The translations under genes and the position numbers were made by a program. From Ktedonosporobacter sp. (GTDB lineage Bacteria; Chloroflexota; Ktedonobacteria; Ktedonobacterales; Ktedonobacteraceae): DNA of 64,000 nucleotides. Location: positions 1 through 64,000 of the forward strand of contig DATGMF010000079.1 in assembly GCA_035293765.1 (NCBI GenBank). Reading direction: 5' to 3'. Below, piece by piece: positions 18,801 through 35,314 of this stretch (positions are counted from its first letter, which is position 1; each line of letters starts with the position of its first letter). The notes under the pieces were generated by a model that saw only the letters and a program-made list of their open reading frames with translations, was not told the origin of the DNA and searched no databases.

Positions 18801-19120
18801 GCGACACGTTCCCGCCGGATGGTAGACCGTGTTGGCGGTGCGCCGGGCGTACTCCGAAAGCTCGCACTCATCCTGTACATGATTGCCAGGAGCGAGTTCT
18901 CTTTTGATCCAGCGTTATTTCCACAGGAGAAACCTCAATGCTCTCGGCTCCTAGTGGAGCCCTTCCCGATTGCTAAAGTATATCTCAGCTTTGGGAACTC
19001 TAGCAAAGTGCGCCATTTAGTGGGTGATGGATACATAGAGTCCTGGTTGCGGCAGGAAATCGCAACCAGGACTACAGGCGCACTCAATAAGGTACTCACC
19101 AGGACGGTGGTGATAGCAGC

Positions 19121-20980
19121 CTAAAAGGACGGGTTAGCGTTTTGGACCAGCGTATCAAACCCGGCCTGGAACCAGGCACCAGAGACCGGAGCGTTAGCCA
19201 TAGCCCCCGTCGGCAGGTTGTTGTTCAGCGGATCGCCGCCAAACGTCGGGTCGCACATGCGGTCGAAGCCCTTGCCCGTGGGATTCTGAGGCCCCGTTGG
19301 AATCAGCGAGCTTGAGCCATCAGATTCGCCAGGCGGCTTGATCCAGACGAACGCGGCAATATTAGGCATCGGATTCGCTTGTGGGCGAGCCCCGATGCCA
19401 CCAGGCTGGTTGCACCAGTTGCCGCGGCCAATGCGCTTGTCGATCCTGGTGGCGTTAACGAATGTGTTCAGATCCGTTGAGGTGCTCGGTCCTGTCGGGC
19501 GAGCGGAGCCTCCCCAACCGTTACGCGACGTGTCGATTAACATGCCAATGGTGCTCGGGAAGCCGGCGGCGATAAACGCATTGCGCATATCGGTGTCATA
19601 GGTGGCCTCGTCGATGTAGGTGTTCCACTGGTAGAAGGTGGCGGAGCGCACCGGCTGACCGTTGATCTGCTGATTGGCGGTCATGAACGGCTCGGTCGTC
19701 GGCGTATAGTTGGCGGTGTTGCTGATGAAGCCATCCACACTATTGACGCCGGCGGTCGTGCCCTTGATCGTGTTGCTGATCAGGGTCACAGCGGGCTGGA
19801 AGTTGCTGGTCCAGCCGAGCCAGCCGTCGTGGGCAATATCGACGTAGTTGTATACGTTCGGGATCGCGTGCAGCTTGTTCAGTGCGTATTGGACGCCCTG
19901 CACGTAAGCGCCGCTGGAGTTTGCCTCAGCGCACTTGGCGATATTCAGGTTGGTGACCAGGTTGGGCAGCGAGTCCGGCTCGATGATCGCGACGATGCGC
20001 AAATTGCTATATTTCGGCAGACTGAACGTGGCCGCAATCGGGTCGATATACTGTGATTTGTAGATCGACAGACCGTTATTGGCGACAGTTAGCTCGCCGT
20101 TAGACGCCAGGGCTGCGCAATCGCGGTCAGGCAGGTCGTAGATGACGAAAGTGATCACGACGGGCTGGCTGCCGGTGGCCTGGGACAGTGCCGCATCCAG
20201 GTGCCCTGCCAGGCTTCTGGCGTAGCCCGGACCGCCGCTGATCGCGCCCATGCTGTCGAGCCAGACGGCTGTCGAGTACTGAGCGACTTTGGCCTCCTGC
20301 GTCCCGAGTGTGCCTCCTACCGAAGCTGCGCCCGCTTTAACGTTCGCGGCCCAATCAGGGTTGATGTATCCCTGAGCGCCAACGTAAGGATTGGCAACGT
20401 GCGTGCCAGGCGGTGGCGGCGGGGTAGGTGTAGGCGTATTCGTCGGCGTCTGGGTAGGCGTGGGTGTATTCGTCTGAGTCGGAGTTGGCGTATTCGTTGG
20501 CGGCGGTGGCGTGCCATTACAGGCATTACCATTGATGGTAAAGCTTGTAGGTGCGGTATTGCTACCACTCCAGTTGGCGTTAAAGCCAGGAGGAGAGGTC
20601 ACCGTCGCGCCCGCCGCAACGGCTCCATTATAGGACAGGCTGGTGATCGTCACCGCTGCGCCATTTTGCGTAAAGTTGCCATTCCACAACTGCGTGATCG
20701 TCTGGCCGTTGGGGAACGAGAACTGCAAGCTCCAGCTCGTCCATGCTGAGGCGCTGGTATTTTGAATGGTGAAACTTGCCCCGAAGCCAGTGTTCCACTG
20801 GTTTGTTACTGTGTAGGTCACCACACAGGATGAATCTGCATGCGTAGCCGTAGCCTCTATGAACAAGCTGCTGATGAGCAAAGTCAGCACGCTCGCGAGC
20901 AAGACCAGACTTCGTAGCTTGTTTTTAGCGAGCAAACCTGGAAGTCTACTCTGTGAGATGCGACGCTTGATATCGCGCAT
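19121..20980 (-). CDS. GH6 cellulase (cellobiohydrolase/endoglucanase) with N-terminal CBM2 and Pro/Thr linker
   Basis: N-terminal CBM2 ([23 protein letters not shown]...[18 protein letters not shown]). PT-linker TPTPTQTNTPTPT. GH6 catalytic signature VIYDLPDRDCAA. RBS aaaggaggg precedes the Met at 20980; the track ORF is 5'-extended. Confidence 0.9.
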   Translation of the reverse strand: MRDIKRRISQSRLPGLLAKNKLRSLVLLASVLTLLISSLFIEATATHADSSCVVTYTVTNQWNTGFGASFTIQNTSASAWTSWSLQFSFPNGQTITQLWNGNFTQNGAAVTITSLSYNGAVAAGATVTSPPGFNANWSGSNTAPTSFTINGNACNGTPPPPTNTPTPTQTNTPTPTQTPTNTPTPTPPPPPGTHVANPYVGAQGYINPDWAANVKAGAASVGGTLGTQEAKVAQYSTAVWLDSMGAISGGPGYARSLAGHLDAALSQATGSQPVVITFVIYDLPDRDCAALASNGELTVANNGLSIYKSQYIDPIAATFSLPKYSNLRIVAIIEPDSLPNLVTNLNIAKCAEANSSGAYVQGVQYALNKLHAIPNVYNYVDIAHDGWLGWTSNFQPAVTLISNTIKGTTAGVNSVDGFISNTANYTPTTEPFMTANQQINGQPVRSATFYQWNTYIDEATYDTDMRNAFIAAGFPSTIGMLIDTSRNGWGGSARPTGPSTSTDLNTFVNATRIDKRIGRGNWCNQPGGIGARPQANPMPNIAAFVWIKPPGESDGSSSLIPTGPQNPTGKGFDRMCDPTFGGDPLNNNLPTGAMANAPVSGAWFQAGFDTLVQNANPSF

Positions 20981-21018
20981 TCTACCCTCCTTTGGGTGCA
21001 ACTAAGAAAAACGATGCT

Positions 21019-21176
21019 AGAAAGATACTTCCTCGCCGAGCGACAGAGCGGAGCTAGCTGTGCTAACAGCGTTGTCGCTCGGAATAGAAAGATACTTCCT
21101 TGCCGAGCGACACTCCCACGATGAGTCGGGGAGCTACAACGCTCAGTCGCTCGGCAAAGAAAGATCAGGAAGTACT
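21019..21176. repeat. three copies (2 direct, 1 inverted, plus a partial) of a ~27-bp element AGAAAGATACTTCC(T/C)(C/T)GCCGAGCGACA forming two GC-rich hairpins in the GH48-GH6 intergenic spacer
   Basis: Copies at 21019-21045 and 21086-21112; inverted copy at 21146-21176; partial inverted copy at 21071-21085. Arms ttgccgagcgac/gtcgctcggcaa pair across a 34-nt loop, starting 8 nt past the GH48 stop. Confidence 0.6.
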
Positions 21177-23687
21177 ACAGGACGAACCATTCAAAGTGAA
21201 TGCAGTAGGAGGTGAATTACTGCCACTCCAGTTGGCATTAAAGCCAGGAGGAGAGCTCAGCGTGGCCCCTGCCGGGATCGAGCCGTTGTAGGACAGGTTG
21301 GTAATCGTCACCTTCGCGCCATTTTGCGTAAAGTTGCCGTTCCACAGTTGCGTGATTGTCTGGCCGTTGGGGAAGCTAAATTGCAAGCTCCAGCCATTGA
21401 TCGCCGTCGTTCCGGTGTTGGTAATCGTGAAGCTGGCCCCGAAGCCGGTGTTCCACTGGTTCGTCACCGTGTAGATCACCTTACAAGTCGCGCTCGGGTT
21501 CGGAGTGGGACTTGGCGTCGGGCTCGGCGTGGGCGTAGGTGTTGATGTTTGTGTGGGCGTAGGTGTCGGTGTTGATGTCTGCGTGGGCGTGGGTGTAGGC
21601 GTCCCTCCTGATGGTGGGAACAGGATATCAACATCAGCCATTGCCATAGCGATATCGGCCTGAGCCCAGAAACGATGGTAGTTAAAGGTTGGCGCCGGAC
21701 CCCCATTCAGGTAGGCTTGCACCTTTGGAAAGGCGGGATCTGACGTATACTTGGGCCGCTCGGTAAGAAACGTCGTGGACGAATTGAGCGTCGCGCCCTG
21801 TGCATTGGTGCCTACCCAGTTCGCAGGAATAGAGACCGAGTCGTTGAACTGGTTATAGTCCTTGCGAGTTTCGGGGTTGGAGACGCCGATGCTGTCAGCA
21901 AAGTTGGCCCACATATCGGTCAGCAGTGTCTGAGCCAGGGTGCGCGACGTGGTGTCGCCAGATTTGGCGGCATAGTACAGCAGGGTCTTAGCCAGCGCAG
22001 CCGTGACGCCCACATCAGTAGTGGTGTCTACCACGGTCACATGCAGGCCCGCATTGTTCACCGAGGTCGTCCCGGCAGTCCAGTTCCCTCCCGGCTGACC
22101 GCTCCAGTTAAGGGTTGAGGGGATCGTGTAAGTGCCATTGGAGTTGACTGTCGTCTCTGACTTGGCCCAGGCGACCCATTTATCCAGGATCGACTTGGCC
22201 GTGGCATCGCCGGTCTCGAAGTAATACTCGGCAACCCGTTCCATTGACCATGCCTGGAAACCAAACCAGTTGTTGCTGGGCGGATCATGGTAGACCGGTT
22301 CGAAATCGTAGGCCATGCCGTAGAATGTGGGATCACCGGCAGGAGGCGTTCCATACTGTCCATTCCAACTATTGGTCGCGCCACCGGCGATGGCACCTTC
22401 AGCCGATTGCAGCCACTGATAGAACTGTAACATGCGTTGCAGGCTGGTGGCCCAGTCACCGGGAGCGGTTGGAGACTTGGGTTTGAGAGCGGGCACAGTG
22501 CTCAGCGCCCAGGCGGCCAGAGGGTTCTGGTAGCCCTGGTGGGCAGCGCTGGCACCGATACGCCAGGCCCAGCTACCGGCGGAAGGGAGCGCTCCGCCCC
22601 AGGCATAGTACCAGTCCAGCAAATAGGTTGAACTGTTTTTGCCGCTACCTGCCGGGCAACTCGTGCTTGTACAACCCATCGTCTTGAAGTATTTATCGTA
22701 GGTGCCATAGCGCAGATAGTCACCCATCTTCGATGCTTCGGCAACTTGAGATGCTATCGCGCTCCCCTGTCCTTGAGCAGTCGCCCAGGTATAGGCCCAA
22801 AAGGCTGCCTGGACCGTGCGCGCATCAGCATCAGGAGCATCGGTATAGCGCCACTGCTGCGAGTAGCCACCTCCTGAAGCCGAGGTGTTGAATAGCGTCA
22901 AAAAGCCGGTTCCATCGTTCCTGCCCCAGGTGAATGTCTCACATTCTGGTTGAACTACCGTCTTCCAGACCGACTCCGATGCGCCACGCTGGTACGAGTT
23001 GATGAAAGATGGCTTGGTCGTGCCATCCCCACAGTGACCGTAACCGTACCAGTTATCCGTGTCGAGCAGCCAGGGCATGCCAAAGATATCGGAAGTGCCG
23101 TAGGTCTGCTGGAGTTCGTTAGCCAGTGGATCTTGCCCCACCGACACAGATGTGGAGAGCTGGGTTGGATAATCGGTGATATTGGGTGACTCTGGCGCGT
23201 ACTGCGCGGGACTGCTGGGATTATAGCCGCTGTTGGTCGGCTGATCGGCGTGTGATGGAATCATATACTTATCCATCGTCGCCCAGGCGTTGATAAAGGG
23301 CTGCCAGTTCCCCGTCACCTGACCGTAGGTCGCCTCCAGCCAGATCCAGAAGCTGAACGTTTCTGACGTGGTTTCGTGGCCGTAGTCTGGCGCTTCTACT
23401 ATCAGGGTCTCCACTGAATGGTAGGGGATACCCAGAGGGCTAAAATACCCATTGGCCGGATTCTTGATCTCACCATAGAGAGTCAGGAAATGCTGGGTAT
23501 AGATGGATGTGGCATTTGCAGTTCGAGTAGCACTATGTGCTAGCGGAATACGTTGGCCTCCTAAAAATCCAGAGATCATCAGCGTCGTGACGATGATCCC
23601 CAGTAAAACATATTGAAAGATCCTCTTTGGAGTCACTCTAACCTCCTTTTTACACAATGCTAAACCCAGGTGGTATAGACCATCCAA
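21165..23687 (-). CDS. GH48 reducing-end cellobiohydrolase with C-terminal CBM2
   Basis: YFSPLGIPYHSVETLIVEAPDYGHETTSETFSFWIWLEATYG is the GH48 N-terminal signature (cf. Cel48/CelS). C-terminal PT-linker plus CBM2 ([25 protein letters not shown]...). Signal peptide present; TTG start. Confidence 0.9.
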   Translation of the reverse strand: MDGLYHLGLALCKKEVRVTPKRIFQYVLLGIIVTTLMISGFLGGQRIPLAHSATRTANATSIYTQHFLTLYGEIKNPANGYFSPLGIPYHSVETLIVEAPDYGHETTSETFSFWIWLEATYGQVTGNWQPFINAWATMDKYMIPSHADQPTNSGYNPSSPAQYAPESPNITDYPTQLSTSVSVGQDPLANELQQTYGTSDIFGMPWLLDTDNWYGYGHCGDGTTKPSFINSYQRGASESVWKTVVQPECETFTWGRNDGTGFLTLFNTSASGGGYSQQWRYTDAPDADARTVQAAFWAYTWATAQGQGSAIASQVAEASKMGDYLRYGTYDKYFKTMGCTSTSCPAGSGKNSSTYLLDWYYAWGGALPSAGSWAWRIGASAAHQGYQNPLAAWALSTVPALKPKSPTAPGDWATSLQRMLQFYQWLQSAEGAIAGGATNSWNGQYGTPPAGDPTFYGMAYDFEPVYHDPPSNNWFGFQAWSMERVAEYYFETGDATAKSILDKWVAWAKSETTVNSNGTYTIPSTLNWSGQPGGNWTAGTTSVNNAGLHVTVVDTTTDVGVTAALAKTLLYYAAKSGDTTSRTLAQTLLTDMWANFADSIGVSNPETRKDYNQFNDSVSIPANWVGTNAQGATLNSSTTFLTERPKYTSDPAFPKVQAYLNGGPAPTFNYHRFWAQADIAMAMADVDILFPPSGGTPTPTPTQTSTPTPTPTQTSTPTPTPSPTPSPTPNPSATCKVIYTVTNQWNTGFGASFTITNTGTTAINGWSLQFSFPNGQTITQLWNGNFTQNGAKVTITNLSYNGSIPAGATLSSPPGFNANWSGSNSPPTAFTLNGSSCSTS

Positions 23688-23837
23688 CTACTCTCCAGAC
23701 TGCGGTGTCGATGCCCCATGACAGAGCCAGCGTTGAGGAGAGCAACCGTTATCCGCTGCATAAGTTGTGGGTGGCGTCTCAGCCTGCTCTGCACCTCCTT
23801 CTCACTGTGATATTTCGAGCGTGAGTGAGGAAAAGAA

Positions 23838-23972
23838 TAATCGTAATCGTTTACGTGAACGTTTACATTAACGGGTAAGTAATGGTAAGATACGTGATGA
23901 ACTGGTTTTGATTGTAGTGTAGCTAATCATTTTTCTGCATACAACGACATCCACTAGACACACTATGGACAG
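23838..23972. promoter_or_regulatory. ~135-bp conserved upstream module (promoter + 5'-UTR operator candidates) of the GH48 gene; paralogous copy at 35455-35590
   Basis: Aligns with 35455-35590 at the same distance (~150-285 nt) from the respective start codons. Shared blocks: gtaatcgtt(t/c)acg..aacgtttaca, ctggttttg..tgtagtgtagctaatc, cactagacacact(a/g)tggacag. In gene orientation it gives TTGTAT-17-TACACT. Confidence 0.5.
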
Positions 23973-24080
23973 ATAGAAGCGGGCAGAACGGGAGTCAGGA
24001 GTACATTGTTGTGCTTAGGAGTTAGCGATCAAGACGTTACACAATCAGTTGTTACGACGAGGTCATTGGAGGACACGCGT

Positions 24081-25262
24081 ATGACACCGAATCGTCGTTT
24101 GAAACAGGCACGCGAACTACGAGGTTGGTCGCAGGCTAAAGTGGCGGAACAGCTTGGCACCGATGCTACCACAGTCAGCCGCTGGGAACGAGGTCTGTTT
24201 TCCCCCACCCCTTATTTTCGCGAGAAACTCTGCGCGCTCTTCGGCAAAAACGCTGCCGAATTAGGGCTGCTGGAAGGCGCAAACCAATCACAAGAGAGCA
24301 ATGGGAACGACTCCTCCCTACGCTCGTCTGCTTCCCTCCTCTTTCAAGCAGGTATAGAATGGCAGGCAAAGGAACTGCATGCAGGAAAAATCACTTCTCC
24401 CGTACCACCTTCCTGGCCGAAACGTACAGACACTTTCACCTACATTCTACAAAGTGCTACATACGATCAACAGGCTCATTTGCTGTGGGGAGAGGCATAT
24501 GTGCGAGCGTTGCAGGGGCAACACAAAGAAGCGCAACTGCTGGGCGAGGCCAGTCTGAGCGCGTTTGAAAGCGTCAATCATTTGAATGCGACAGCTATTC
24601 GTGAGTGGCTTGACCAGCGGGGGCTGGTCCCGCCCACGCCTCCTCCACCCAGTGGAGCCCCACCTCTGCCTGTGCTGCCAGAACAGCGCAAACGCGCTCC
24701 CAGCCAGATTTTGCGCGCAGGGGGCGTTAGCTTTGCTCTCATCCTGATCGTTATCGCATCACTTCTGCTCCCCGGCTTTTCTTTCAATCAGTTCCGCCTA
24801 CCAGCTCTGACCTCGTCAACGGCTCATGCTTTGTCTTCTATGAAGCAAGAGACACCGATGAGGCCGCTCACAGGAGTTGCCAGCATTGCCACTCCAACGC
24901 CCGTCATCGTTGCCACACCTACGCCTATGATCTCTCCTGCTCTGACGCCGCCGACCCCCTCTGCTCTGACGGCTGAGATTTCGCCGGCCAATTTAACGCC
25001 GCAGGATTGTATCCTGGAGGCGCTCGGCTATCGCTGTACACTGACGCTCTGGTTATATGGCAGCGGCCAGGGGCTATTTACCTGGGAGGCTAGCAGCTCA
25101 TTGGCGGCGCAATTCAATGCTAGCAAGGGAACCAGTATGCCAGGGCAGCCATCACAGGTAATTGTTTATATCAGAAGTTCTCCTGGTGAGAAAGGCCAGC
25201 TTATTTTTACTTTTACCTCGTCTGCGGATACATGTACGAAATCCGTCACCTGGCAGGGCTGA
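24081..25262 (+). CDS. membrane-anchored XRE-family HTH regulator with Pro-rich linker, one TM helix and ~170-aa extracytoplasmic C-terminal domain
   Basis: HTH: MTPNRRLKQARELRGWSQAKVAEQLGTDATTVSRWERG. TM: GVSFALILIVIASLLLPGFSF. Lies divergent from GH48 and upstream of GH9. Confidence 0.7.
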   Translation: MTPNRRLKQARELRGWSQAKVAEQLGTDATTVSRWERGLFSPTPYFREKLCALFGKNAAELGLLEGANQSQESNGNDSSLRSSASLLFQAGIEWQAKELHAGKITSPVPPSWPKRTDTFTYILQSATYDQQAHLLWGEAYVRALQGQHKEAQLLGEASLSAFESVNHLNATAIREWLDQRGLVPPTPPPPSGAPPLPVLPEQRKRAPSQILRAGGVSFALILIVIASLLLPGFSFNQFRLPALTSSTAHALSSMKQETPMRPLTGVASIATPTPVIVATPTPMISPALTPPTPSALTAEISPANLTPQDCILEALGYRCTLTLWLYGSGQGLFTWEASSSLAAQFNASKGTSMPGQPSQVIVYIRSSPGEKGQLIFTFTSSADTCTKSVTWQG

Positions 25263-25305
25263 ACCACCCCTGCCGGGTAATGCTGCTGACCATGTGCTTA
25301 GTAAC

Positions 25306-25351
25306 TGTCTAGTGTGTGTTCTTGTATCTGGATTATCATGCTAGGTACAGT
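25306..25351 (+). promoter_or_regulatory. candidate GH9 promoter sharing the TGTCTAGTGTGTG upstream box and TTGTAT -35 with the GH48 / GH-A modules
   Basis: tgtctagtgtgtg (25306-25318), TTGTAT (25322-25327), 18-nt spacer, TACAGT (25346-25351); ~80 nt upstream of the GH9 ATG. Confidence 0.4.
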
Positions 25352-25432
25352 ACATCATACGCTCTTGTTTTATTTGGGAACATCTATGAAAAGGGGATGG
25401 GTACCCTCTATACCCTGAAAGGACAGGGGAAT

Positions 25433-27892
25433 ATGATGCCGGTCAAGAAGCTCGGTACACACAGGTTGAAGCAACCATCTACCATCCTGCTGCTACCTCT
25501 GCTCTGCATGATTCTGCTGGCGACTGTTCTCATAAGCCCGCTACGCTCAGCGATTGTCCATGCCAGCCCAACGTTTAACTACGGGGAGGCATTGCAGAAG
25601 GCCATATACTTTTATGAAGAGCAGAGTTCTGGCCCTAAACCATCCTGGAACCGTGTGCCCTGGATCGGCAACTCAGCCATGAACGACGGCTCAGACGTTG
25701 GCCTTGATCTGACCGGTGGCTGGTATGACGCCGGGGACCACGTCAAATTTGGCTTGCCGATGGCCTGGTCTGTCACTATGCTCGGTTGGGGCGTCATTGC
25801 GAACCGCGACGCCTATGTGCAGGATGGTCAACTGCAGTATATCTTGAATAATATCAAATGGGCCACCGATTACTTCATCAAAGCGCATCCCTCTCCCGAT
25901 GTATTGTACGGACAGGTTGGTGACCCTAATGCGGATCACTCCTTCTGGGGACCGGCAGAGGTGATGCAGATGGCCCGTCCCGCTTACAAGATCGACGAGA
26001 GTTGTCCAGGCTCCGATCTGGCAGGGGAGACGGCTGCCGCAATGGCCTCGGCCTCGATGGTTTTCCAACCGACAGATCCAACGTACGCGAGTACCCTCCT
26101 CACTCATGCCAAGCAGCTCTACTCATTTGCCGACAATTTCCGTGGCAAGTACGACTCCTGTATTACCGCAGCCAGTGGCTTCTACACCTCATTCAGTGGC
26201 TATAACGACGAACTGGTCTGGGGAGCCATCTGGCTCTATCTGGCAACCGGTGATACTGCGTATCTGACCAAAGCTGAGAATTATTACGTCAATCTCAGCA
26301 ATCAGCCGCAGACGAATATCAAATCCTACCAGTGGACGATTAGCTGGGATGATCAATCTTATGGCTGCTATATTTTGCTGGCTGAGATCACCGGCCTACA
26401 GCAGTACAAGGATGACGCTCAGCGTTTCCTCGATTGGTGGACGGTTGGAGTAAACGGGCAGAAAGTCAGCTACTCGCCTGGAGGGGAGGCTTTTCTCAGC
26501 CCGTGGGGCTCGCTACGCTACGCGGCCAATACGGCCTTCTTAGCCCTGAATTATGCCGACTATCTGGGCACGAGCAACCCGCTGTACTCGCGCTATCATG
26601 ATTTTGCTGTGCAGCAGATCAACTACATCCTGGGGGCGAATCCGCGCAATTGCAGCTACATGGTCGGCTTCGGCTCCTGCTATCCTCAGACGCCGCACCA
26701 TCGCACCTCGCATGGTTCCTGGGATAATAACATCACGGACCCGGTCTATCAGCGTCATATCCTCTACGGGGCAATGGTGGGCGGACCCAGTTCTGCCGAC
26801 GACTCCTTTACCGACAATCGCCAGACGTTCCAGACCAACGAGCCTGCCGACGATTATAACGCGGCTCTTACAGGTGCATTAGCACGCCTGTACAAAGAGT
26901 TTGGCGGTAGCCCGGCGGCTTCGCTGCCGGACAAGGCCAAAGACGACGATGAAATTTACGCCATGGCCGCCGTCAATGCTTCGGGGACGAACTTCACGGA
27001 GATCAAGGCCATCTTCGTCAACAAGACCGGCTGGCCTGCTCGCGTCACCAGCAATCTCTCTCTGAACTACTACTTCACGCTGGAGCCGGGAGTGACGCCG
27101 AGCATGCTTACGTTGAACACGAATTATACCGAGTGTGGCAGCCACCTCTCCGGGCCAACGCAGTTCTCTGGCAACATCTACTACATCACGGTGAGCTGCG
27201 CTGGTACCCTCATTTATCCAGGTGGGCAAAGCAATTTCCAGAAGCAGGTGCAGTTCCGCATTACCAGCTCGGGCGCCTGGGACCCTACCAACGACTGGTC
27301 CTACCAGGGGGTAGCCACGCCGGCAGGTGCGCAACCGGTCAAAGTGACGAATATGCCCGTTTTTGATGGCAGTACGCAGGTCTGGGGCGCGACGCCTGGC
27401 AGTACCGGACCCACGCCGACGCCAACTCCTGGTGTGACCCCAACGGTCACGCCAACGCAAACGCCAGTGCCTACTCCAAATCCAACACCAGGCCCGACGC
27501 CGAGTCCGACGCCCATGCCAACTCCAACGCCGAACCCGACGCCAAGTCCGACGCCCACCCCAGGCGCGAGCTGCAAGGTGGTCTACACGGTGACGAATCA
27601 GTGGTCCACCGGCTTTGGGGCGAGCTTCACGATCACCAACACGGGCACGACGGCGATTAATGGCTGGAGCCTGCAATTCAGCTTCGCCAACGGGCAGACC
27701 ATCACGCAGTTATGGGGCGGTAACTTCACGCAGACAGGAGCGAAGGTGACCATTACCAATCTCTCCTATAACGGCGCAATCCCGGCGGGGGCGACGCTCA
27801 GTTCCCCTCCTGGCTTCAACGCCTCCTGGAGCGGCACCAATGCGCCTCCAACCGCGTTCACCCTGAACGGAGCATCTTGTAGTACTTCCTGA
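25433..27892 (+). CDS. GH9 processive endoglucanase with CBM3c, PT linker and C-terminal CBM2 (Cel9A/E4-like architecture)
   Basis: GH9 signature [25 protein letters not shown]3c-like block [45 protein letters not shown] linker [37 protein letters not shown]2 [25 protein letters not shown].... RBS gggga precedes ATGATG at 25433. Confidence 0.9.
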
Positions 27893-27900
27893 GAGCAGAG

Positions 27901-28234
27901 GGCAAGCGCAAGGCCCCCTCCCAGGCCCATGCACCTCCCCTTGCCCCTACCGGTTCAGGGTTTACGTACGTGTGGGGAGACGACGAACGTATGGGTAGGG
28001 GCAATGCCTTGCGCTTGCCCTGCTCGCTTCCCCGACCCATGCCCATCCCTGCGACCCATCCAAACGGTTTGTACAAGGTTCCACCGCAGGCCGTAGGGGC
28101 AAGGGGACGGGCAGACGGGGATGTGGGGGCCTTGCACTTGCTTGCCCTGCTGGCTGCACGAGGGGAAACGCAGGCCGTAGGGGCAAGGGGACGGGCAGAC
28201 GGGGATGTGGGGGCCTTGCACTTGCTTGCCCTGC
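27901..28234. repeat. GC-rich intergenic repeat cluster: two 65-bp tandem direct repeats plus imperfect inverted/partial copies
   Basis: Unit gcaggccgtaggggcaaggggacgggcagacggggatgtgggggccttgcacttgcttgccctgc at 28086-28150 and 28170-28234. An inverted relative lies at 27901-27955 (gcaagcgcaaggccccc...ccccttgcccctac) and a partial one at 27993-28040. Confidence 0.65.
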
Positions 28235-28256
28235 CAGACCTGAAAGGAGATACAAC

Positions 28257-29204
28257 TTGCTTGCACGAAATGCAAATGGCAGCCACTATGCTACTCGTTT
28301 ACGCGTCCTGTTGTTACTGGCGATCTTGCTTTTCCCCCTGCTTGTAAGCTGTGGTGCAGATTCTCAGAATACTCCTCTGTCCGATAAGCCAACTATGCAA
28401 GCCGGACAGGTCTCCGCGACGCAGCCTGTGCCAACCTCCGCACCTCTGTCACCCACCTCAACTGCACAGCCATCAATCCTGCAAGGGCCGACAAATTTTC
28501 TCCTCACCCCCCCTCTCGCCTTTTCCAGTGCGAGCGGAGCTACTATGGACAATAACGGGGCGATCACTCCACTGGACGCGAATACGATAAAAACACAGAT
28601 TACTGCGGAACTGAAACGCCTCCTTTTTGTGGTAGACAGCCATAATGGCGTCAAAGTCTACAGCCCGGGAACATCACCGGTCACAGCCCAGGTAACACAC
28701 AATGCCGACGGCAGCATAGCTATCAACTATCAACAGACGGTAGACTCTGAAGCGGGGTCTGTAGCCATCACATTCGATGGGGTGCTGCTCAAGCAGCAAA
28801 TAACCGTGACCTATGATCAACAATATTCGCCTTCAATACTCATTAATGCCAATGCCAGCGAGGTAACGGTTGCCCTGACCGCGGCTGTGCGCTGGGTATC
28901 AGCAAACCAGATACCCGCCGCACCGGGGAACGGGAGCTATCGGCTCACGAGTAGCGGTGGCATTGCTCTCGCCTGGTCGGCGGGCCAGAATGCTGCCGCG
29001 TATAATGTCTATCGTCTGATCTCTGACCGCGATCAGCAGTTTCAGCTCCTGGCTACGGTAAAAGCTACCGCATATACCGACAACTCAGCCGCCGCCGCAC
29101 AATATGTCAACTCCCCAAAGGGCATCACCTACGCGGTCTTCTCCATTGGGCCAACCAATGTCGAAAATCCCGGGGGGATGGTTATAGTTGTGGCGACACA
29201 GTAG
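28257..29204 (+). CDS. hypothetical lipoprotein (lipobox LVSC) with Ser/Thr/Pro-rich linker
   Basis: MLARNANGSHYATRLRVLLLLAILLFPLLVSCGADSQN.... TTG start preceded by RBS aaaggaga; no recognisable catalytic domain. Confidence 0.55.
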   Translation: MLARNANGSHYATRLRVLLLLAILLFPLLVSCGADSQNTPLSDKPTMQAGQVSATQPVPTSAPLSPTSTAQPSILQGPTNFLLTPPLAFSSASGATMDNNGAITPLDANTIKTQITAELKRLLFVVDSHNGVKVYSPGTSPVTAQVTHNADGSIAINYQQTVDSEAGSVAITFDGVLLKQQITVTYDQQYSPSILINANASEVTVALTAAVRWVSANQIPAAPGNGSYRLTSSGGIALAWSAGQNAAAYNVYRLISDRDQQFQLLATVKATAYTDNSAAAAQYVNSPKGITYAVFSIGPTNVENPGGMVIVVATQ

Positions 29205-29247
29205 GAAGTTTAGAGGAGTCAGGCTTCTCGAAGATAGGTGCATTTGC

Positions 29248-29287
29248 GAGTCACAATCCCCACGAAGCTTCGTGGGGATTGTGACTC
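29248..29287. promoter_or_regulatory. perfect 40-bp palindrome (20-bp arms) between convergent lipoprotein and anti-sigma genes
   Basis: gagtcacaatccccacgaag|cttcgtggggattgtgactc. Neither strand has a following U-tract, so it may be a protein-binding site rather than a simple intrinsic terminator. Confidence 0.5.
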
Positions 29288-29293
29288 AAAAAC

Positions 29294-30787
29294 TCAGGAA
29301 AGCTGCCAGATGCTGACTGTGTTCTGCAAGAGCTCCTTCTGACCCAGTTCAGCAGAAATGTTGGTCGTAGTGGCAAGCATTGTGCTGTCCGGTGACCAGG
29401 CCAGTGTCGGAATAAAAGCAGGCTTACTGGTCTTGCCAAAGGTCGCAACAATCTTTTGTGCTTTCACATCCCAGATGTGGATAGCGCTGCCGCTCTCAGC
29501 CAGATATTTCCCATTTGGTGACCAGGCCAGCGAGCCAATAACCTTTGCCCAGGTATCGCTATCTTTAAAGGATGCGGTGAGTTGACCGCTTGCAACCGAC
29601 CAGATTTGCACCTCGGGAGTATCAGGTAAGCCCAGTGCAAGAAAAGCTCCATCCGGTGACCAGGCCAGTGCGCTCACGCTCACCAGATTAGCAGGCTGGT
29701 GGTAAGCAATGCTGTTGACCAGGTTACCACTCGCAATATTCCAGATCTCCACGCCGCCATTTACCGTCTGTACAGCGACATACTTCCCATCGGGGGAGAT
29801 GGGTAACATGCCAACATTCTGACCCAGAAGCTTTTTACCAGGACTCAATGTGATCGTCGTGCGAATGAGCGCTCCGGTGCTGGCATTCCATATCTGCATG
29901 AGTATAGGGCTAGCGGTGCCCGATGCTGCGAAGTTACCGGCCTTCGGCGTGAATGTCTGGACGGCAGAAATTATTGTTTCATTGGATAACCATGCTGACT
30001 GCTCAATAGCATTGTTATGCCCATTCCCTTGAAAGCTGGCGATGACACGTCCAGTGGTGGCATCGAGCACTTCTGCTTCGTATGCCCCGGTCAGCACTAA
30101 CAGGCGTTTCCCATCTGGTGACCAGGCAGCCTGCTGCGCATACGGTAATAAGTTTGCGGATTTGGTTGCACAGTTTTGTGCGGATACCGTTTTGAGATTA
30201 TAATAGGTCACGGCAAGCTGGCCGGTAGGAGACCAGTCCAGCGTGGGCTGGTGCAGAAACGGATAGCCGGTCCCGTTATCTGAGAAACTACATAATAGCA
30301 TCCCGGAGCTCAATGCTTTTTGCACTGTACCCGTCTGCGTTGTCGGCTTGTTATGAGTAGTCGATTGCCGCAACGAGGAAGAGAGCAGTACCCAGCTCAC
30401 GATGATGATCAAAACGGCTGCTACAGCCACAGCAGTGCTTAATATATTGCGGAGAGCGTGACGAGAGCGCCTCGTAGACCATGAATCGGAAGTCGAGAAT
30501 CTCGTTCCCTGCGAAGTATCTTCTTGCATTGTTTTTCCTTTTCTCAAAAACTGCTCGCCTTCAGGTGACTTGTGCCGTGCCTCCTGAAGCAGAGCAGGAT
30601 GCCCCTGACTCTGAACAAAGCGATTCCATATTCGCTCCAAAGACTGCTCGTTTTCTCGGGCATAGGTCTGGGAACTCGCATACAAAGCCTGGATCAAGCG
30701 GCGCTCGTCCCGTGAAAGATCTTGTGACCAGCGTTTAGTCTGTGCATCTATTGCCTCTGGGGTAAAGCCGTTCTCATGTTCTTTCAT
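29294..30787 (-). CDS. anti-sigma-factor-like membrane protein with extracytoplasmic WD40/PD40 beta-propeller
   Basis: 125-aa cytoplasmic N-domain, TM helix AVAVAAVLIIIVSWVLL, then repeated AWSPDG / LAWSPNGKYLA / LAWSPDSTML propeller blades. Overlaps the upstream ECF sigma gene by 4 nt. Confidence 0.7.
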   Translation of the reverse strand: MKEHENGFTPEAIDAQTKRWSQDLSRDERRLIQALYASSQTYARENEQSLERIWNRFVQSQGHPALLQEARHKSPEGEQFLRKGKTMQEDTSQGTRFSTSDSWSTRRSRHALRNILSTAVAVAAVLIIIVSWVLLSSSLRQSTTHNKPTTQTGTVQKALSSGMLLCSFSDNGTGYPFLHQPTLDWSPTGQLAVTYYNLKTVSAQNCATKSANLLPYAQQAAWSPDGKRLLVLTGAYEAEVLDATTGRVIASFQGNGHNNAIEQSAWLSNETIISAVQTFTPKAGNFAASGTASPILMQIWNASTGALIRTTITLSPGKKLLGQNVGMLPISPDGKYVAVQTVNGGVEIWNIASGNLVNSIAYHQPANLVSVSALAWSPDGAFLALGLPDTPEVQIWSVASGQLTASFKDSDTWAKVIGSLAWSPNGKYLAESGSAIHIWDVKAQKIVATFGKTSKPAFIPTLAWSPDSTMLATTTNISAELGQKELLQNTVSIWQLS

Positions 30788-31332
30788 CGTTTCTCACCTT
30801 TTTCCCAGTCTTTGTAGAACCTCCGCAGGCTCTGGAGTGTACGGAACAGGATCATCCGTACTGCTCCCGCGCTTTTTTCGACAGCAGGGGCTATTTCCTC
30901 ACATTTCAGGCCATGGCCAAACCGCAAGCGCAACACCTCTTGCTGAAGTTCTGGCAGGGCTCGTATCGTGCTAGAAAGCCAGATGAACTCTTCGCGTTGA
31001 AGACTGATCTGCTCTGGAGCCTGGTGCTCGTCTTCACAAAATGACTCGGAGAGCCATTCTATGGGAACGTATGGGTGACGAATGGAACGCCGGTAGTAAT
31101 CCACAACTTTGTTGCGAGTAATGGTCCAGAGCCAGGCCTCTTGCTTTTTCGCATCGAAGGTCGGAAACCGTTTGTTCTGTAAAACAGAGAGAAAGACCTC
31201 TAGCACAATATCTTCAGCGTCTTCGCGTGATGCAGTTTGCTGATAGACATAGGCGAAAAGGCTCGAAGCATAATGGCGGTAGAGTTCCGCATAGAGTGAG
31301 TGCTCCAAAAGTTCAGCTTCCTTGTGTTGCAT
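30784..31332 (-). CDS. ECF-type RNA polymerase sigma-70 factor
   Basis: Region 2 YRHYASSLFAYVYQQTASREDAEDIVLEVFLSV and region 4 LPELQQEVLRLRFGHGLKCEEIAPAVEKSAGAVRMILFRTLQSLRRF. Confidence 0.85.
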   Translation of the reverse strand: MQHKEAELLEHSLYAELYRHYASSLFAYVYQQTASREDAEDIVLEVFLSVLQNKRFPTFDAKKQEAWLWTITRNKVVDYYRRSIRHPYVPIEWLSESFCEDEHQAPEQISLQREEFIWLSSTIRALPELQQEVLRLRFGHGLKCEEIAPAVEKSAGAVRMILFRTLQSLRRFYKDWEKGEKR

Positions 31333-31551
31333 ATCTATCCTCTAGAGGTTTTTGAGATCTCATCAGGTATCTCGTCCAGAAGCGAAAAATGTCACACACT
31401 CAAAAAGAGAAATCAAAAACGGAGAGAAAAATGATGAAGCTGCCGAGGAAAAAAGAGGATAAGAATCTACTCAGAAAGAGCAAGCTACAGAGCTATGAGC
31501 ATAGGCGCCCATAGCTCTGCATATACAAACCAGACCGTTCCGGTACAAAGA

Positions 31552-33087
31552 TTACGATGTACTACAGGCCGCTCCATTGAGCGTGAAGGCGGTGGGCACC
31601 GTGTTGCTGCCACTCCAGTTGGCATTAAAGCCTGGAGGCGAGCTCAGCGTCGCTCCCGCCGGAATAGAGCCGTTATAGGACAGGTTGGTGATCGTTACCG
31701 TTGCGCCACTTTGCGTAAAATTCCCATTCCACAGTTGCGTGATCGTCTGCCCATTGGCGAAGCTAAAGCGCAAAGTCCAGCCGTTGATCGCCGTCGTGCC
31801 CGTGTTGGTGATCGTGAAGCTCGCCCCAAAGCCGGTATTCCACTGATTGGTGATCGTATACACCACTTTGCAGCTCGCGCCGCCGGTTGGGGTCGGTGTC
31901 GGGCTTGGGGTAGAGGTGGGAGTTGCTGTTGGCGTATTCGTGGGCGTGTTTGTCGGTGTGGGCGTAGGCGTGCCGCCACCACCTAGAGAAAGAAGGTGGG
32001 CTTTATACCCTGCCCCATAGTTCGTGGGAGTGCCGGTATAGTCGGCAAGCAGCGACGGCGTGCCGCCGCAATTCCCCGTCACCGTCCAGGTCCAGGCCAT
32101 GTAGCCGGTGCTGTGCTGATCGAGCCAGGTCGTGAGCGTATTAATAAAGCCTGAGGCACAGTCATTCTCGCCGATCTCGCCAGCCAGAACGGGCACCTGT
32201 GCGATTACCGGCGCGATTTGTGAGTCCCAACAACTTGTATTAGAACAGGCATTAAAGTTGTAGATATGCGTCGAGGCCGCCAGATTGTTCTGCGGATCGC
32301 TAGGCTTGTTTGCCAGCCATTGCGAGAGATCATTGGAGAAGGCCAGTCCTCCCAGCATCAGTACGTTGGTCGCACCGGTCGCACGGACCGTATTGACCAG
32401 CGTTTGCATCCCCGCCACAGCGAAACCAACGCCTGAGCATGCGCCGGACTGGGGAGCCGTGCTGCCGTTGAGCCAGCAGGACCAGCTCACGTCGTGCGGC
32501 TCATTGTACAGATCGAAGATCACCGAAGAGTTGCTCTTAAATGTATTGGCAACCGAGGTCCAGAAGGCGGGAGCGTGATCCAGGTCTGGCATCATCTGCT
32601 GACCGGTGGACTGATTGGTACCGGAATTATTCCAGTGCAAATCCAGGATCACGATCTGGCCGTTGGCGTTTAGTAAATTCACCCAGTTGACAATATCTGA
32701 CTGATACTGGGCCGCGGTTTTGTTGTTGGCGGGAAATCCATTGATACCAAGCCAGCAGTCTTCGTTCAGGGGGACACGGACGATATTGGTGCCCCAGGCG
32801 ACCATAGCACTGACAGTAGCCTGATCAATTGGCCCATCAAAGTCGGTGGGAGCGTTGGTCGCGCTCTTGGTACACTGGTATTCTGTGCCCATGCGATCAA
32901 CGCCGTGAGGCACAATGACATGACCACTGCCATCCTCAAGTTTATTGCCAACGACGTGCAGCCCCGTCGGCACGCTGGCTGCTTTGACCGAGCCTGGCGG
33001 TCGTGATGTGAAGATCATTGCCGCCGAGCAGAGAAGCAGAGCTACAACGGCGAGCATCAATAGTCGAAAGCGTTTTTTGCTTTGCAT
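31552..33087 (-). CDS. GH5 endoglucanase with C-terminal CBM2
   Basis: GH5 acid/base motif VIFDLYNEPHD; nucleophile region VLAGEIGENDC. PT-linker plus CBM2 ([25 protein letters not shown]...). Signal peptide present; RBS aaggagga. Confidence 0.9.
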   Translation of the reverse strand: MQSKKRFRLLMLAVVALLLCSAAMIFTSRPPGSVKAASVPTGLHVVGNKLEDGSGHVIVPHGVDRMGTEYQCTKSATNAPTDFDGPIDQATVSAMVAWGTNIVRVPLNEDCWLGINGFPANNKTAAQYQSDIVNWVNLLNANGQIVILDLHWNNSGTNQSTGQQMMPDLDHAPAFWTSVANTFKSNSSVIFDLYNEPHDVSWSCWLNGSTAPQSGACSGVGFAVAGMQTLVNTVRATGATNVLMLGGLAFSNDLSQWLANKPSDPQNNLAASTHIYNFNACSNTSCWDSQIAPVIAQVPVLAGEIGENDCASGFINTLTTWLDQHSTGYMAWTWTVTGNCGGTPSLLADYTGTPTNYGAGYKAHLLSLGGGGTPTPTPTNTPTNTPTATPTSTPSPTPTPTGGASCKVVYTITNQWNTGFGASFTITNTGTTAINGWTLRFSFANGQTITQLWNGNFTQSGATVTITNLSYNGSIPAGATLSSPPGFNANWSGSNTVPTAFTLNGAACSTS

Positions 33088-33273
33088 GTATTCCTCCTTA
33101 ATGCATTTCCGCTTGACATCTTCGGATTCGATGGTATACTTCCCCTCAAAAGGGGCGGCGGAAGCCAGTGGCTATCACGACCTGCTTGAGGGTACTGAAA
33201 ATTAATCAGGCGAGGTGAATGTGACGTCATAAAAAACCGCTGTACGTACATAGCTAGGGAAGCCCGTTACAAA

Positions 33274-33295
33274 GGCGACTGAGCATTCAGTCGCC
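33274..33295 (-). terminator. short hairpin downstream of the GH-A gene (weak U-tract)
   Basis: Minus RNA reads GGCGACUGA-AUGC-UCAGUCGCC-UUUGU, 21 nt after the stop. Confidence 0.4.
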
Positions 33296-33316
33296 TTGCC
33301 ACAAGCCAGGGATTGC

Positions 33317-35314
33317 TCATGAGGTGCTGCATGCAGCACCGTTGAGCGTAAACGAGGTCGGGTTGAGATTGCTGCCGCTCCAGGAGGCGTTGAAGCCAGG
33401 GGGGGAGCTCAAAGTGGCTCCCGCCGGGATCGAGCCGTTATAGGACAGGTTGCTGATCGTCACCGCCGCGCCATTTTGCGTAAAATTGCCGTTCCACAAT
33501 TGCGTAATTGTTTGCCCATTGGCGAAACTAAATTGCAAATTCCAACCGTTAATTGCCGTTGTGCCCGTATTGGTGATCGCGAAGCTCGCGCCAAAGCCGG
33601 TGTTCCACTGATTCGTCACTGTATACACTACCTTGCAGCTCACTCCTGAAGGCGTCGGGCTGGGCGTCGGACTCGGCGTATTGGTAGGTGTCGCTGTGGG
33701 CGTATTGGTGGGCGTGGGTGTGGGCGTTCCTCCCGTGCCTGGCTGTAAAACAATCGTCGTGAGCGAATACGGTGCGATACTGATGCCGCTGAGCGAGCCC
33801 TGGGCTGAGCTGATTGAGTTGCTGCTCTGACCGTAGGTGTAAAGCGTCGCGTTGGCAGCCGCGCTGTAGCCATTGAGCGAGAGAGCCACCGTGTACGTGG
33901 TACCAGGATCTTTGTTGATCAAGAGCAGTGCCAGATTGCCATTGGCCTGCTTGACCGCGTGGACCGCTACCAGGCTTTGATTAGACGAGGAGGAGACCAT
34001 CGTATCCCCCGGGCCAAACAGGTGAGAGAGCATCTGCAAGCCATAATATGGTGGGAATGGGGTATCTGCTGGCGGCTCAGTGATGCCTCCAGACGAACTG
34101 CCATTGGATAAGACGCCCATATCCCCGTAGTTGGCCGTGCCATAGAGGCTGGAGCTATTGTCCCCGCTGGTCACGATGCCATTGTGCTCCGCCCACCAGT
34201 CCACGTTGAAGACGCCGTTTTCCAGCCAGGTCATATACGCGTCGGCCAGAAAGAGGCCATTGACCAGGCTGACCGTTTGCTTACCAGGAGGGAAGCCGCC
34301 GCCGTTCGAGTTCATTTCGGTCACGGCAATGCCGACCTGGCTGGCTCTGGAGCCAAGATATTGCCCATAGAGCGAGCGCAGCGTCGCGACCTTGCCGGCA
34401 ATTTCCGCCGGACTGCCGAGCAAGCCAGCGTCGCTGTAGTTGCCGCCAGAGGCGTAATCGGTGTACCAGTGAATGTCGCCGAAGTCTATAAAGGGGCCGG
34501 CGATAGAGAGCACGGTATGATTCCAGTCCATCGTATCGCCATCATTAGTATCAACGACCCCATCAGGCCAATCGCCAGGAGTCGTCAGCACCACACCAAC
34601 CTTGATGGTCGGGTCAACAGCTTTCATGGCCTGGATGATCTGTACAGCATTCTGAGCGTAGGCGGTGGCTCCCTTCTTCGAATGGATGTCATATTCCCAG
34701 TTGGCGGTATAACTGCCATTGCCGTAAACTTCGTTGCCAACCTCCCAGTATTTGATACCGTAGGTATGGCCTGTACTGCTGCCTCCTGTATAGGTGGGAA
34801 CCGGACCATTATAGCCAGGACCCCCTTTGTTAGCGTACTGCACCCAGTTGGCGGCTTCCTGCGCTGTGCCTGAGCCATAGTTCACGGTAACGATTGGCTG
34901 CGCATCGGACCCGACCGCCTGAACAGCGCCCATGAAGGCATCAAAGGTATTGCTGGGATTGGCAAAGCTCTGGCCCGGTACCGTTGTATTCGACTGCCAA
35001 TGGTAGACATCCGAGGTCGAGCCGCCGGGATAGCGTATGGTTTTGACGTTGGCGCTCTTGAGCAAGGTGGCCGCTGTAGCATCGAGCATATTCCCATTCC
35101 AGACGGCGGTATTGATGCCCTCGCTTGCAGTGGTGAAAGTGCCAAGCGACTGGCCGGCATTGATAGTGATCTGGGCGCTGGTGGCTGCGACCGCGTGCCC
35201 CAATGGGCTAAATAGCACGATGGAGAAGATCAAAATGCAACACATTGCCGCGCAAGCAATCACTGTGTTGCTCCTGGGGGACAGATACGAACTGACGAAC
35301 AACTTCCTTGTCAT
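33317..35314 (-). CDS. clan GH-A (beta/alpha)8 glycoside hydrolase (GH5/GH30/GH44/GH51-like; family unassigned) with C-terminal CBM2
   Basis: IRYPGGSTSDVYHWQ and GIKYWEVGNEVYG (acid/base NE motif) are typical of clan GH-A. C-terminal PT-linker plus CBM2 ([25 protein letters not shown]...). Confidence 0.8.
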   Translation of the reverse strand: MTRKLFVSSYLSPRSNTVIACAAMCCILIFSIVLFSPLGHAVAATSAQITINAGQSLGTFTTASEGINTAVWNGNMLDATAATLLKSANVKTIRYPGGSTSDVYHWQSNTTVPGQSFANPSNTFDAFMGAVQAVGSDAQPIVTVNYGSGTAQEAANWVQYANKGGPGYNGPVPTYTGGSSTGHTYGIKYWEVGNEVYGNGSYTANWEYDIHSKKGATAYAQNAVQIIQAMKAVDPTIKVGVVLTTPGDWPDGVVDTNDGDTMDWNHTVLSIAGPFIDFGDIHWYTDYASGGNYSDAGLLGSPAEIAGKVATLRSLYGQYLGSRASQVGIAVTEMNSNGGGFPPGKQTVSLVNGLFLADAYMTWLENGVFNVDWWAEHNGIVTSGDNSSSLYGTANYGDMGVLSNGSSSGGITEPPADTPFPPYYGLQMLSHLFGPGDTMVSSSSNQSLVAVHAVKQANGNLALLLINKDPGTTYTVALSLNGYSAAANATLYTYGQSSNSISSAQGSLSGISIAPYSLTTIVLQPGTGGTPTPTPTNTPTATPTNTPSPTPSPTPSGVSCKVVYTVTNQWNTGFGASFAITNTGTTAINGWNLQFSFANGQTITQLWNGNFTQNGAAVTISNLSYNGSIPAGATLSSPPGFNASWSGSNLNPTSFTLNGAACSTS

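Follow-up and report, generated by a model that had tools for sequence, protein, structure and literature searches.

The 64,000-nucleotide stretch of DNA analysed here (the window) derives from an uncultured soil member of the Ktedonobacteraceae (Chloroflexota) and contains a genuine secreted-cellulase gene cluster, which is assembled from two blocks with an extracytoplasmic function (ECF) sigma factor and a putative WD40-type anti-sigma factor (the sigma pair) situated between them only in this lineage. On balance we consider it probable that a membrane-anchored XRE-family regulator encoded in the first block controls the cellulase regulon, and that the sigma pair is an independent module. 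The genes named in the original prediction, encoding glycoside hydrolases (GH) of families GH6, GH48, GH9-CBM3 and GH5, a GH51-like enzyme, XRE, the sigma factor and the WD40 protein, are all present at or near where it had placed them and are identifiable by Pfam (Table 1); a conserved gene for a 315-aa lipoprotein (28257–29204, transcribed rightwards) had been overlooked.

The first block (19018–29204) contains the leftwards-transcribed GH48 and GH6 genes and, divergently, the XRE, GH9 and lipoprotein genes in that order, and is the core that recurs throughout the class. Thermogemmatispora carboxidivorans PM5, T. tikiterensis T81 and Thermosporothrix hazakensis are cultured organisms that share it. 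The second block consists of the GH51-like gene followed by GH5, an order that recurs in one other locus (L108). A sister genome (L013) with ~93% DNA identity to the window is colinear with it over 19018–29204 only, the colinearity breaking exactly at position 29204, the end of the lipoprotein gene. The arrangement of the locus is unchanged in the other assemblies shown (GCA_037025245.1, GCA_037024435.1, GCA_037025345.1, JGI 3300005531 and JGI 3300039487), which excludes an assembly artefact, and the WD40 protein is present with identical sequence on 22 contigs.

Using GH48 as the anchor, 23 Ktedonobacteria/Chloroflexota loci with 10-kb flanks were collected and mapped by tblastn with all locus proteins of the window. 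In 14 of the 23 loci the XRE gene, and in 16 the lipoprotein gene, lies no more than 10 kb from GH48, and the commonest layout has XRE divergent from GH48, followed by GH9 and/or the 315-aa open reading frame (ORF). The sigma pair is found in none of the 23 (tblastn, 10-kb flanks). When XRE is the anchor instead, ~20 of the ~22 metagenome loci with usable flanks carry a GH48, GH6, GH9, GH5 or CBM2 gene or the promoter motif described below, L092 and L095 likewise having cellulase genes or the motif beside XRE, and the sigma pair is absent from these XRE-anchored loci. Linkage to the hydrolase genes had been proposed for both regulators; it holds for XRE, which is a conserved partner of GH48, GH9 and GH6 throughout the class, and fails for the sigma factor.

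The GH48, GH9 and GH51-like genes are preceded by a shared promoter element. Its core (TGTCTAGYG-N2-TGTY-N-TTGT) has three exact copies in the window (23941–23960, 25306–25325 and 35555–35574) with 0.22 expected by chance, and an alignment of ten GH48 upstream regions from Ktedonobacteraceae shows it without variation; the upstream regions of GH48 and the GH51-like gene are 83% identical over 72 nt. The fetched loci contain 43 distinct copies of the motif (at most two mismatches), and each copy that was mapped lies directly upstream of GH48, GH9, the 315-aa ORF, GH6, GH5 or a GH51-like gene, with none in the sigma-pair loci. The motif follows the XRE gene in L013–L017, L022, L026, L092, L096, L097 and L101. 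The consensus of the 43 copies, A.CTGyyyA-N5-TGTCTAGyr..TGTy.TTGTat-N17/18-TACAmT, is a −35/−10 pair of the housekeeping type, preceded and overlapped by three TGTC-like repeats ~11 bp apart. Gene calls place the likely true starts at 23636 (GH48), 24081 (XRE), 25433 (GH9) and 35263 (GH51-like), and the longer GH9 ORF (starting at 25316) is overlapped by the promoter-like element.

Downstream of the promoter element, the leaders of GH48 and the GH51-like gene also contain tandem 12-bp palindromic boxes (0.00–0.27 expected by chance). These are found before GH48 in L013, L014, L015 and L019 as well, and in close relatives that include Ktedonobacter species. The possibility that the long GH48 leader, or any other part of the locus, contains a known RNA element was rejected, Rfam searches giving nothing above chance.

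The XRE protein combines a DNA-binding domain and a transmembrane helix in a single polypeptide and is thus a single-pass transmembrane transcription regulator; the one-component regulator with an extracytoplasmic domain that had been predicted is borne out by the helix-turn-helix (HTH), the membrane helix and the outer Ig-like domain. The HTH, a bona fide DNA-binding fold, extends from residue 1 to ~60–65 and is followed by a three-helix domain (residues 118–179), the membrane segment (215–232) and an outer domain of the Ig-like (ASH/PapD-like) type (297–392). Across the family the HTH is nearly invariant and the three-helix domain conserved, and these are followed by a basic stretch with the membrane helix, a variable Ser/Thr/Pro linker and, at the C-terminus, a conserved ~100-aa domain in which two cysteines are invariant. 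This C-terminal domain occurs elsewhere in tandem arrays in large proteins of the HYDIN/BACON_2 type and as the C-terminal domain of Ser/Thr kinases, so that the outer module is one reused in other signalling proteins. A search of 5.8 billion proteins gives 165 matches to the family, and every match with a named organism is from the Ktedonobacteria. Identification of the protein as RodZ was tried and discarded, because Pfam gives no HTH_25 or DUF4115 match and the C-terminal domain is ASH/PapD-like; the family also differs from RodZ in its range, being found in Ktedonobacteria only and in cellulase loci.

Shorter forms of the regulator are also present. One of 235–240 aa (P0214; P0234, L092 coordinates 19602–20309) lacks the outer domain but has the HTH and helical domain and ends in a hydrophobic tail, and another of 313 aa (P0237, from Ktedonobacter robiniae) has the HTH, membrane helix and outer domain without the helical domain. 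As natural domain-deletion variants, these could help to dissect function.

In the mechanism that we propose, three transcription units (GH48–GH6, GH9–lipoprotein and GH51-like–GH5) would start at the shared promoter, which is of the type used by a housekeeping sigma factor (−35 TTGTAT, spacer of 17–18 nt, −10 TACAMT). The phased TGTC-like repeats (core TGTCTAGYG-N2-TGTY), ~11 bp apart and lying upstream of the promoter so as to overlap the −35, would be bound by the membrane-anchored XRE from its position in the membrane, and the Ig-like outer domain would tune transcription on an extracellular cue. A second regulator, not linked to the locus, would bind the tandem palindromic boxes of the GH48 and GH51-like leaders, and the sigma pair would have no control over the cellulase genes. 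Gene identities, synteny, the distribution of the motif and the domain architecture are observed directly; from these we infer what binds the motif, in which direction regulation acts and what the signal would be, and the case for XRE as the motif-binding regulator, judged from sequence features, is evenly poised. We suggest only tentatively that XRE could be the master regulator of a class-wide cellulase regulon and a new kind of polysaccharide sensor, bound to the membrane, acting on phased TGTCTAG-type repeats that overlap the −35 of every cellulase promoter, and switched by its ASH/PapD-like outer domain. Cellulose, cellodextrins or the state of the CBM2-bearing enzymes would be what this domain senses, with the lipoprotein possibly a co-sensor.

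Several observations weigh against this picture. Two cultured organisms, Dictyobacter sp. S3.2.2.5 and Reticulibacter mediterranei, have XRE without a cellulase gene or the motif within 10 kb. Ktedonobacter species keep both the motif and the boxes before GH48 with no XRE adjacent, and their XRE ortholog is shortened and unlinked (P0237). The element consists of phased direct repeats, whereas XRE-type HTH dimers usually bind inverted repeats. The HTH type is common to many other Ktedonobacteria proteins, and its invariance therefore does little to support a specific target. Finally, the sigma pair adjoins GH5 in this species, which could still reflect a recent recruitment.

The first three of these points favour a possible but less probable alternative, in which an unlinked factor such as a LacI/CebR-like cellobiose-responsive repressor or a response regulator would bind the TGTCTAG element and/or the boxes, and XRE would be a neighbour with another role (for example control of the lipoprotein gene only, a membrane scaffold, or response to another signal). 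The palindromic nature of the 12-bp boxes (GTAAACGNTNAC) points the same way; we take these to resemble LacI-family operators. However, XRE is the only regulator whose gene is conserved in these loci, in most of them it directly adjoins the motif, present in one or two copies, and the XRE family is confined to the same class as the motif. Even the Ktedonobacter ortholog, although shortened, retains the same HTH and outer domain.

The original prediction had also placed within the cluster an ECF sigma factor gene followed by one for a single-pass membrane WD40 protein with an outer propeller, and Pfam and the membrane segment agree. The sigma factor scores 81.8 bits against the NCBIfam sigma70-ECF superfamily (cut-off 42.9); its NCBIfam matches are all to ECF families, and the best individual one is BldN, at 115 bits under a cut-off of 206. 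The WD40 protein has a conserved N-terminal helical region of ~65 aa with the motif SLERIW, and the nearest solved structure to its propeller is the WD40 domain of PkwA; neither Pfam nor NCBIfam reveals a known anti-sigma domain.

Contexts of the pair were examined in six contigs encoding homologs of the WD40 protein at 78, 70, 47, 46, 41 and 32% identity. In all six, the membrane WD40 gene comes directly after an ECF sigma gene that overlaps it (by 4 bp in L007–L011, as in the window, and by 14 bp in L012), which identifies the pair as a real conserved unit. No glycoside hydrolase gene is present within 10 kb of the pair at any of the six loci; genes nearby encode, among others, AMP-ligases, a cation-efflux protein, ATP synthase, ABC transporters and MarR regulators. 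One of these pairs (L010) is a paralog within the window's own genome, and the 78% pair (L007) is likely the ortholog in the sister genome: its locus-tag prefix (VFB60) is that of the sister's cellulase block, which is on a different contig.

Alignment of the sigma upstream regions shows an element of ~60 nt adjoining the start codon that is conserved in all seven pairs and is a candidate autoregulated ECF promoter. It is present once in the window (31350–31397), and in 1.9 Mb of fetched loci it precedes only sigma genes of this family; it is found before no hydrolase gene in either. A generic scan for sigma-70 promoters and terminators gave counts not above those of shuffled controls, and the reading of terminators is limited to individual strong hairpins. 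Two such hairpins flank the pair: one, between the convergent lipoprotein and WD40 genes, marks the junction of the core block and the sigma pair and is likely a bidirectional terminator, and the other lies between the GH5 stop codon and the sigma promoter element. With its own upstream element and hairpins on both sides, the pair looks like an insulated and probably autoregulated operon.

The pair is probably a self-contained, autoregulated module of a multi-copy family, and very probably not a dedicated cellulase regulator; as far as the DNA itself can tell, its independence is established by synteny and by cis elements. The proposal that it controls the hydrolase genes was thus rejected on the evidence of synteny, promoter motif and terminators, the pair being missing from all 23 GH48 loci and its own element from before every hydrolase gene.

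Two further readings retain a role for the sigma pair. It is unlikely that control is layered in this species, such that XRE and the shared promoter are ancestral and a sigma pair recently recruited beside GH5 contributes an input that is indirect and specific to the species, for instance an envelope or developmental state that gates secretion. The juxtaposition is stable across the independent assemblies of the species that were shown, the sigma factor is nearest to the developmental BldN family, and Ktedonobacteria are mycelial and spore-forming (PMC5371077). Against this, the sigma promoter and the hydrolase promoters have no cis element in common, the pair is insulated by terminators, and an adjacency confined to a single lineage is what chance rearrangement is expected to give in highly rearranged genomes. 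Very unlikely is a switch of the SigI/RsgI type, as first suggested, in which the propeller would detect cellulose or cello-oligosaccharides and the freed sigma factor would transcribe the surrounding hydrolase genes: the pair does lie inside the cluster, on the strand of GH5 and 219 bp downstream of it, and the WD40 protein has the layout of a sensing anti-sigma factor (N-terminus inside, a single membrane segment and a large outer domain), but six family members, including the same-genome paralog and the 78% sister pair, lack hydrolase neighbours, none of the 23 GH48 loci or of the XRE loci has the pair, its element precedes no hydrolase gene, these genes have another, housekeeping-type promoter in common, and a terminator with a 16-bp stem separates GH5 from the sigma promoter. 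As its sensor the pair has a WD40 propeller, not a carbohydrate-binding module (CBM).

Two of the paralogous pairs (L010 3382–6078 and L011 801–3446) each adjoin a gene for an Ig-repeat protein of the BACON_2/HYDIN type (~880–900 aa), of the same fold class as the outer domain of XRE; the association may be fortuitous, or it may hint at the targets of the sigma family. A different ECF sigma factor, with 28% identity to that of the window, is encoded convergently to XRE and beside GH48 in L099 (11266–11739) and L100 (3121–3594). These two belong to one metagenomic lineage and are unrelated to the pair in the window, and show that ECF sigma genes recur near such loci in gene-dense, regulator-rich genomes.

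Comparison with known systems places the two regulators differently. Transmembrane transcription regulators are a widespread class, ~56% of which are single-pass, and HTH domains are their commonest DNA-binding domains (PMC10269533). XRE resembles the ToxR/CadC/TcpP type in joining a cytoplasmic DNA-binding domain, a single membrane helix and an outer domain. It also resembles ChiS and TfoS of Vibrio cholerae, membrane regulators that respond to chitin (PMC11856585), in that it is encoded beside polysaccharide-degrading genes as these are tied to chitin use. It differs from these in having an XRE/Cro-C1 HTH in place of a ToxR-like winged helix or a domain of the AraC or hybrid-kinase type, and in having an outer domain with an ASH/PapD-like Ig fold, in a family found only in Ktedonobacteria.

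The SigI/RsgI pairs of Clostridium thermocellum are biomass-sensing sigma/anti-sigma pairs (PMC4711584, PMC6582324, PMC10328401), and the window is similar in having, near cellulase genes, a sigma gene followed by one for a single-pass membrane protein whose outer domain is large. However, the sigma factor of the window is of the ECF type rather than a sigma-I factor with its specific C-terminal domain, and the membrane protein has no RsgI_N or CBM match in Pfam; where RsgI proteins have their N-terminal domain and an outer CBM (CBM3, CBM42), PA14 or GH module, it has a WD40 outer part. Linkage to hydrolase genes is also not conserved, and these genes lack the sigma-associated promoter element. 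The pair also resembles those of BldN-type ECF sigma factors, with regions 2 and 4 only and BldN as the best NCBIfam match, an overlapping downstream gene for a single-pass membrane protein, and a conserved upstream element that suggests autoregulation, although the BldN score is under the cut-off and the putative anti-sigma factor has an outer WD40 propeller and no known anti-sigma domain.

Parallels to the enzymes and to the organization of the transcription units are found in actinobacteria. In Thermobifida fusca and Streptomyces, a LacI-type repressor (CelR/CebR) acts at a 14-bp palindromic operator before each cellulase gene. The window shares with these a set of free, CBM2-bearing GH6, GH48, GH9-CBM3c and GH5 enzymes (the nearest solved GH9 and GH6 structures include T. 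fusca enzymes), scattered transcription units with a common cis element, and palindromic boxes downstream of the promoter. It differs in that the locus has no LacI-family gene, the box is GTAAACGNTNAC rather than the actinobacterial TGGGAGCGCTCCCA, the main conserved element is upstream of and overlaps the −35, which is an activator-like position, and the local regulator is the membrane XRE.

The enzyme set itself is ordinary for a free-cellulase system of this actinobacterium-like kind. The GH6, GH48 and GH9 proteins score 326, 971 and 527 bits in Pfam, above the curated thresholds, and GH6 and GH9 are close to solved relatives: HmCel6A, CbsA, CbhA and T. fusca Cel6B for GH6 (E 1e-139 to 1e-158), and the catalytic domain plus CBM3c of T. 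fusca E4/Cel9A for GH9 (E 6e-241). The GH6 protein is 99% identical to the L013 copy. The solved relatives of GH5 are distant only (best E 1e-8), with cellulases mixed with mannanases, although orthologs with 80–85% identity are found in other cellulase loci. Only residues 85–286 of the GH51-like protein align with GH51 arabinofuranosidases (E 2e-13), and its score against the NCBIfam ArfA model is 42 bits (E 4e-11) against a cut-off of 625.

The claim that these enzymes form a synergistic set can be kept for the exo-acting GH6 and GH48 and for the processive endo-acting GH9-CBM3c, and is presumptive for GH5 as the classical endoglucanase, because its solved relatives are so distant. Pfam confirms that all five (GH6, GH48, GH9, GH5 and GH51-like) carry CBM2, and all five are predicted to be secreted, having N-terminal hydrophobic, signal-like segments when read by eye. 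The five CBM2 modules are 74–89% identical as proteins, but their third codon positions are only 45–60% identical, which rules out recent gene conversion among them and identifies the likeness as that of a conserved module type.

Table 1. Coordinates of genes and candidate regulatory features in the cellulase locus.
Feature	Coordinates	Strand	Evidence and remarks
CBM2-GH6 secreted exocellulase, cellobiohydrolase type	ORF 19121–21001; gene 19121–20980	−	Pfam CBM_2 and Glyco_hydro_6 (E 5e-97)
Two tandem hairpin repeat units	21002–21164	−	~67 nt each; direct and inverted repeats, from GH48 stop to GH6 start
GH48-CBM2 secreted exocellulase	ORF 21165–23687; gene 21165–23636	−	Glyco_hydro_48 (E 3e-292) and CBM_2; 823 aa
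Tandem 12-bp palindromic boxes, GH48 leader	23843–23866	−	GTAAACGTTCAC GTAAACGATTAC; candidate operator
Shared promoter element before GH48	23916–23960	−	TGTCTAGTGGATGTCGTTGT; −35 TTGTAT, 17-nt spacer, −10 TACACT
Membrane-anchored XRE-family regulator	ORF 24006–25262; gene 24081–25262	+	Pfam HTH_3/XRE
Shared promoter element before GH9	25306–25351	+	TGTCTAGTGTGTGTTCTTGT; −35 TTGTAT, 18-nt spacer, −10 TACAGT
GH9-CBM3c-CBM2 processive endoglucanase	ORF 25316–27892; gene 25433–27892	+	Pfam GH9 (E 9e-158), CBM3 and CBM2
GC-rich repeat element between GH9 and lipoprotein gene	27893–28256		Two perfect 66-nt copies 84 nt apart; several inverted arms
Conserved lipoprotein, 315 aa	28257–29204	+	Lipobox Cys32, low-complexity linker, beta-sandwich domain, FN3 domain
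Perfect hairpin, 17-bp stem	29250–29290		Between convergent lipoprotein and anti-sigma genes
Putative anti-sigma factor	29294–30787	−	Pfam WD40/PD40-type outer beta-propeller; membrane segment ~114–136
ECF sigma factor	30784–31332	−	Pfam Sigma70_r2, r4 and r4_2; 182 aa, regions 2 and 4 only
Conserved sigma-upstream element	31350–31397	−	GTGTGAYATTTTT-N10-CGAGAT-N6-TGAGATCTCAAAA; candidate autoregulated ECF promoter
Terminator-like hairpin, 16-bp stem	31486–31521	−	Between GH5 stop and sigma promoter element
GH5-CBM2, probable endoglucanase	31552–33087	−	Pfam Cellulase (E 3e-33, 116 bits) and CBM_2
GH51-like (clan GH-A) enzyme with CBM2	ORF 33317–35314; gene 33317–35263	−	Pfam CBM2 only
Tandem boxes before GH51-like gene	35457–35480	−	In leader, downstream of promoter element
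Shared promoter element before GH51-like gene	35555–35574	−	Exact core copy
Secreted protein	35687–36652	−	Pfam Phi_1 (E 0.005; 16.7 bits, cut-off 25)

The 315-aa lipoprotein belongs to a family of 50 unannotated members, those with named organisms being from Ktedonobacteria or Chloroflexota, in which the lipobox cysteine is invariant. Its gene always follows a promoter that has the motif, either immediately or with GH9 in between. The second of its two beta-sandwich domains is a clear FN3 domain, and the predicted model resembles accessory domains of GH85 and GH39 enzymes. A role as a lipocalin co-receptor of the ToxS/VtrC type was considered and set aside, the model having two beta-sandwich domains and no barrel.

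The GC-rich element between GH9 and the lipoprotein gene (27893–28256) has one unit more than in L013 and may be a small mobile or REP-like element. The tandem hairpin units that fill the GH48–GH6 intergenic region (21002–21164) could serve to attenuate the GH48–GH6 transcript or affect its processing or stability.

At the right edge of the cluster, the gene described earlier as encoding a PHI-1/EXORDIUM-like protein that closes the cluster (35687–36652) does not fit that description: its Phi_1 match is below threshold, Pfam, NCBIfam and PDB searches give no supported match, no homolog is present in any other cellulase locus examined, and the shared motif is absent upstream of it, so it is not a conserved part of the locus. 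A 186-aa rightwards-transcribed ORF (36861–37421) contains only the last part of a BTAD domain and the first part of an AAA_16 domain. It looks like a fragment of a large AfsR/MalT-like regulator and marks the right edge of the locus as the site of a rearrangement. The flanking genes are unrelated to the cellulase genes: to the left are those for a DAHP synthase and an ANTAR regulator, and to the right BTAD/AAA fragments and genes for a DUF6036 and a TPR protein.

Further to the right, a rightwards-transcribed region (43068–58198) has ~62% GC compared to ~54% elsewhere in the window and a gene set like that of a defence island. It encodes a 1732-aa DEAD helicase with MZB/DUF1998 and DUF559 domains (PADLOC DruE, E 3.5e-98), an SNF2 helicase (DpdE 1.8e-267, DrmD 3.7e-83), an Eco57I-type methylase (DrmMI 7.8e-65, or type IIG) and an AAA_11/AAA_12 helicase (MkoA 2e-51), and looks like a horizontally acquired hybrid of the DISARM, Druantia and Dpd types.

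Ktedonobacteria are abundant, mycelial soil Chloroflexota, and their degradation of cellulose has been noted before (e.g. PMC12453558, PMC12901349). A limited literature search found nothing on the regulation of cellulase genes in Ktedonobacteria, and no description of the XRE family, the motif or the lipoprotein. What is new here is a class-specific family of membrane XRE proteins, a regulon-wide promoter signature and a conserved lipoprotein, each of which lends itself to direct tests. The locus also carries a caution, in that a regulatory gene may be no more than a bystander in the cluster where it lies, as comparative synteny can quickly reveal. The regulon signature is testable, consisting of a conserved promoter element before GH48, GH9, GH6, GH5 and the GH51-like gene, and there is a single conserved candidate regulator, the membrane XRE, of unusual design. 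If the proposed role of XRE is correct, Ktedonobacteria would provide a third bacterial solution for cellulase control, beside the LacI-type CebR/CelR repressors and SigI/RsgI, and parts for engineering cellulase expression.

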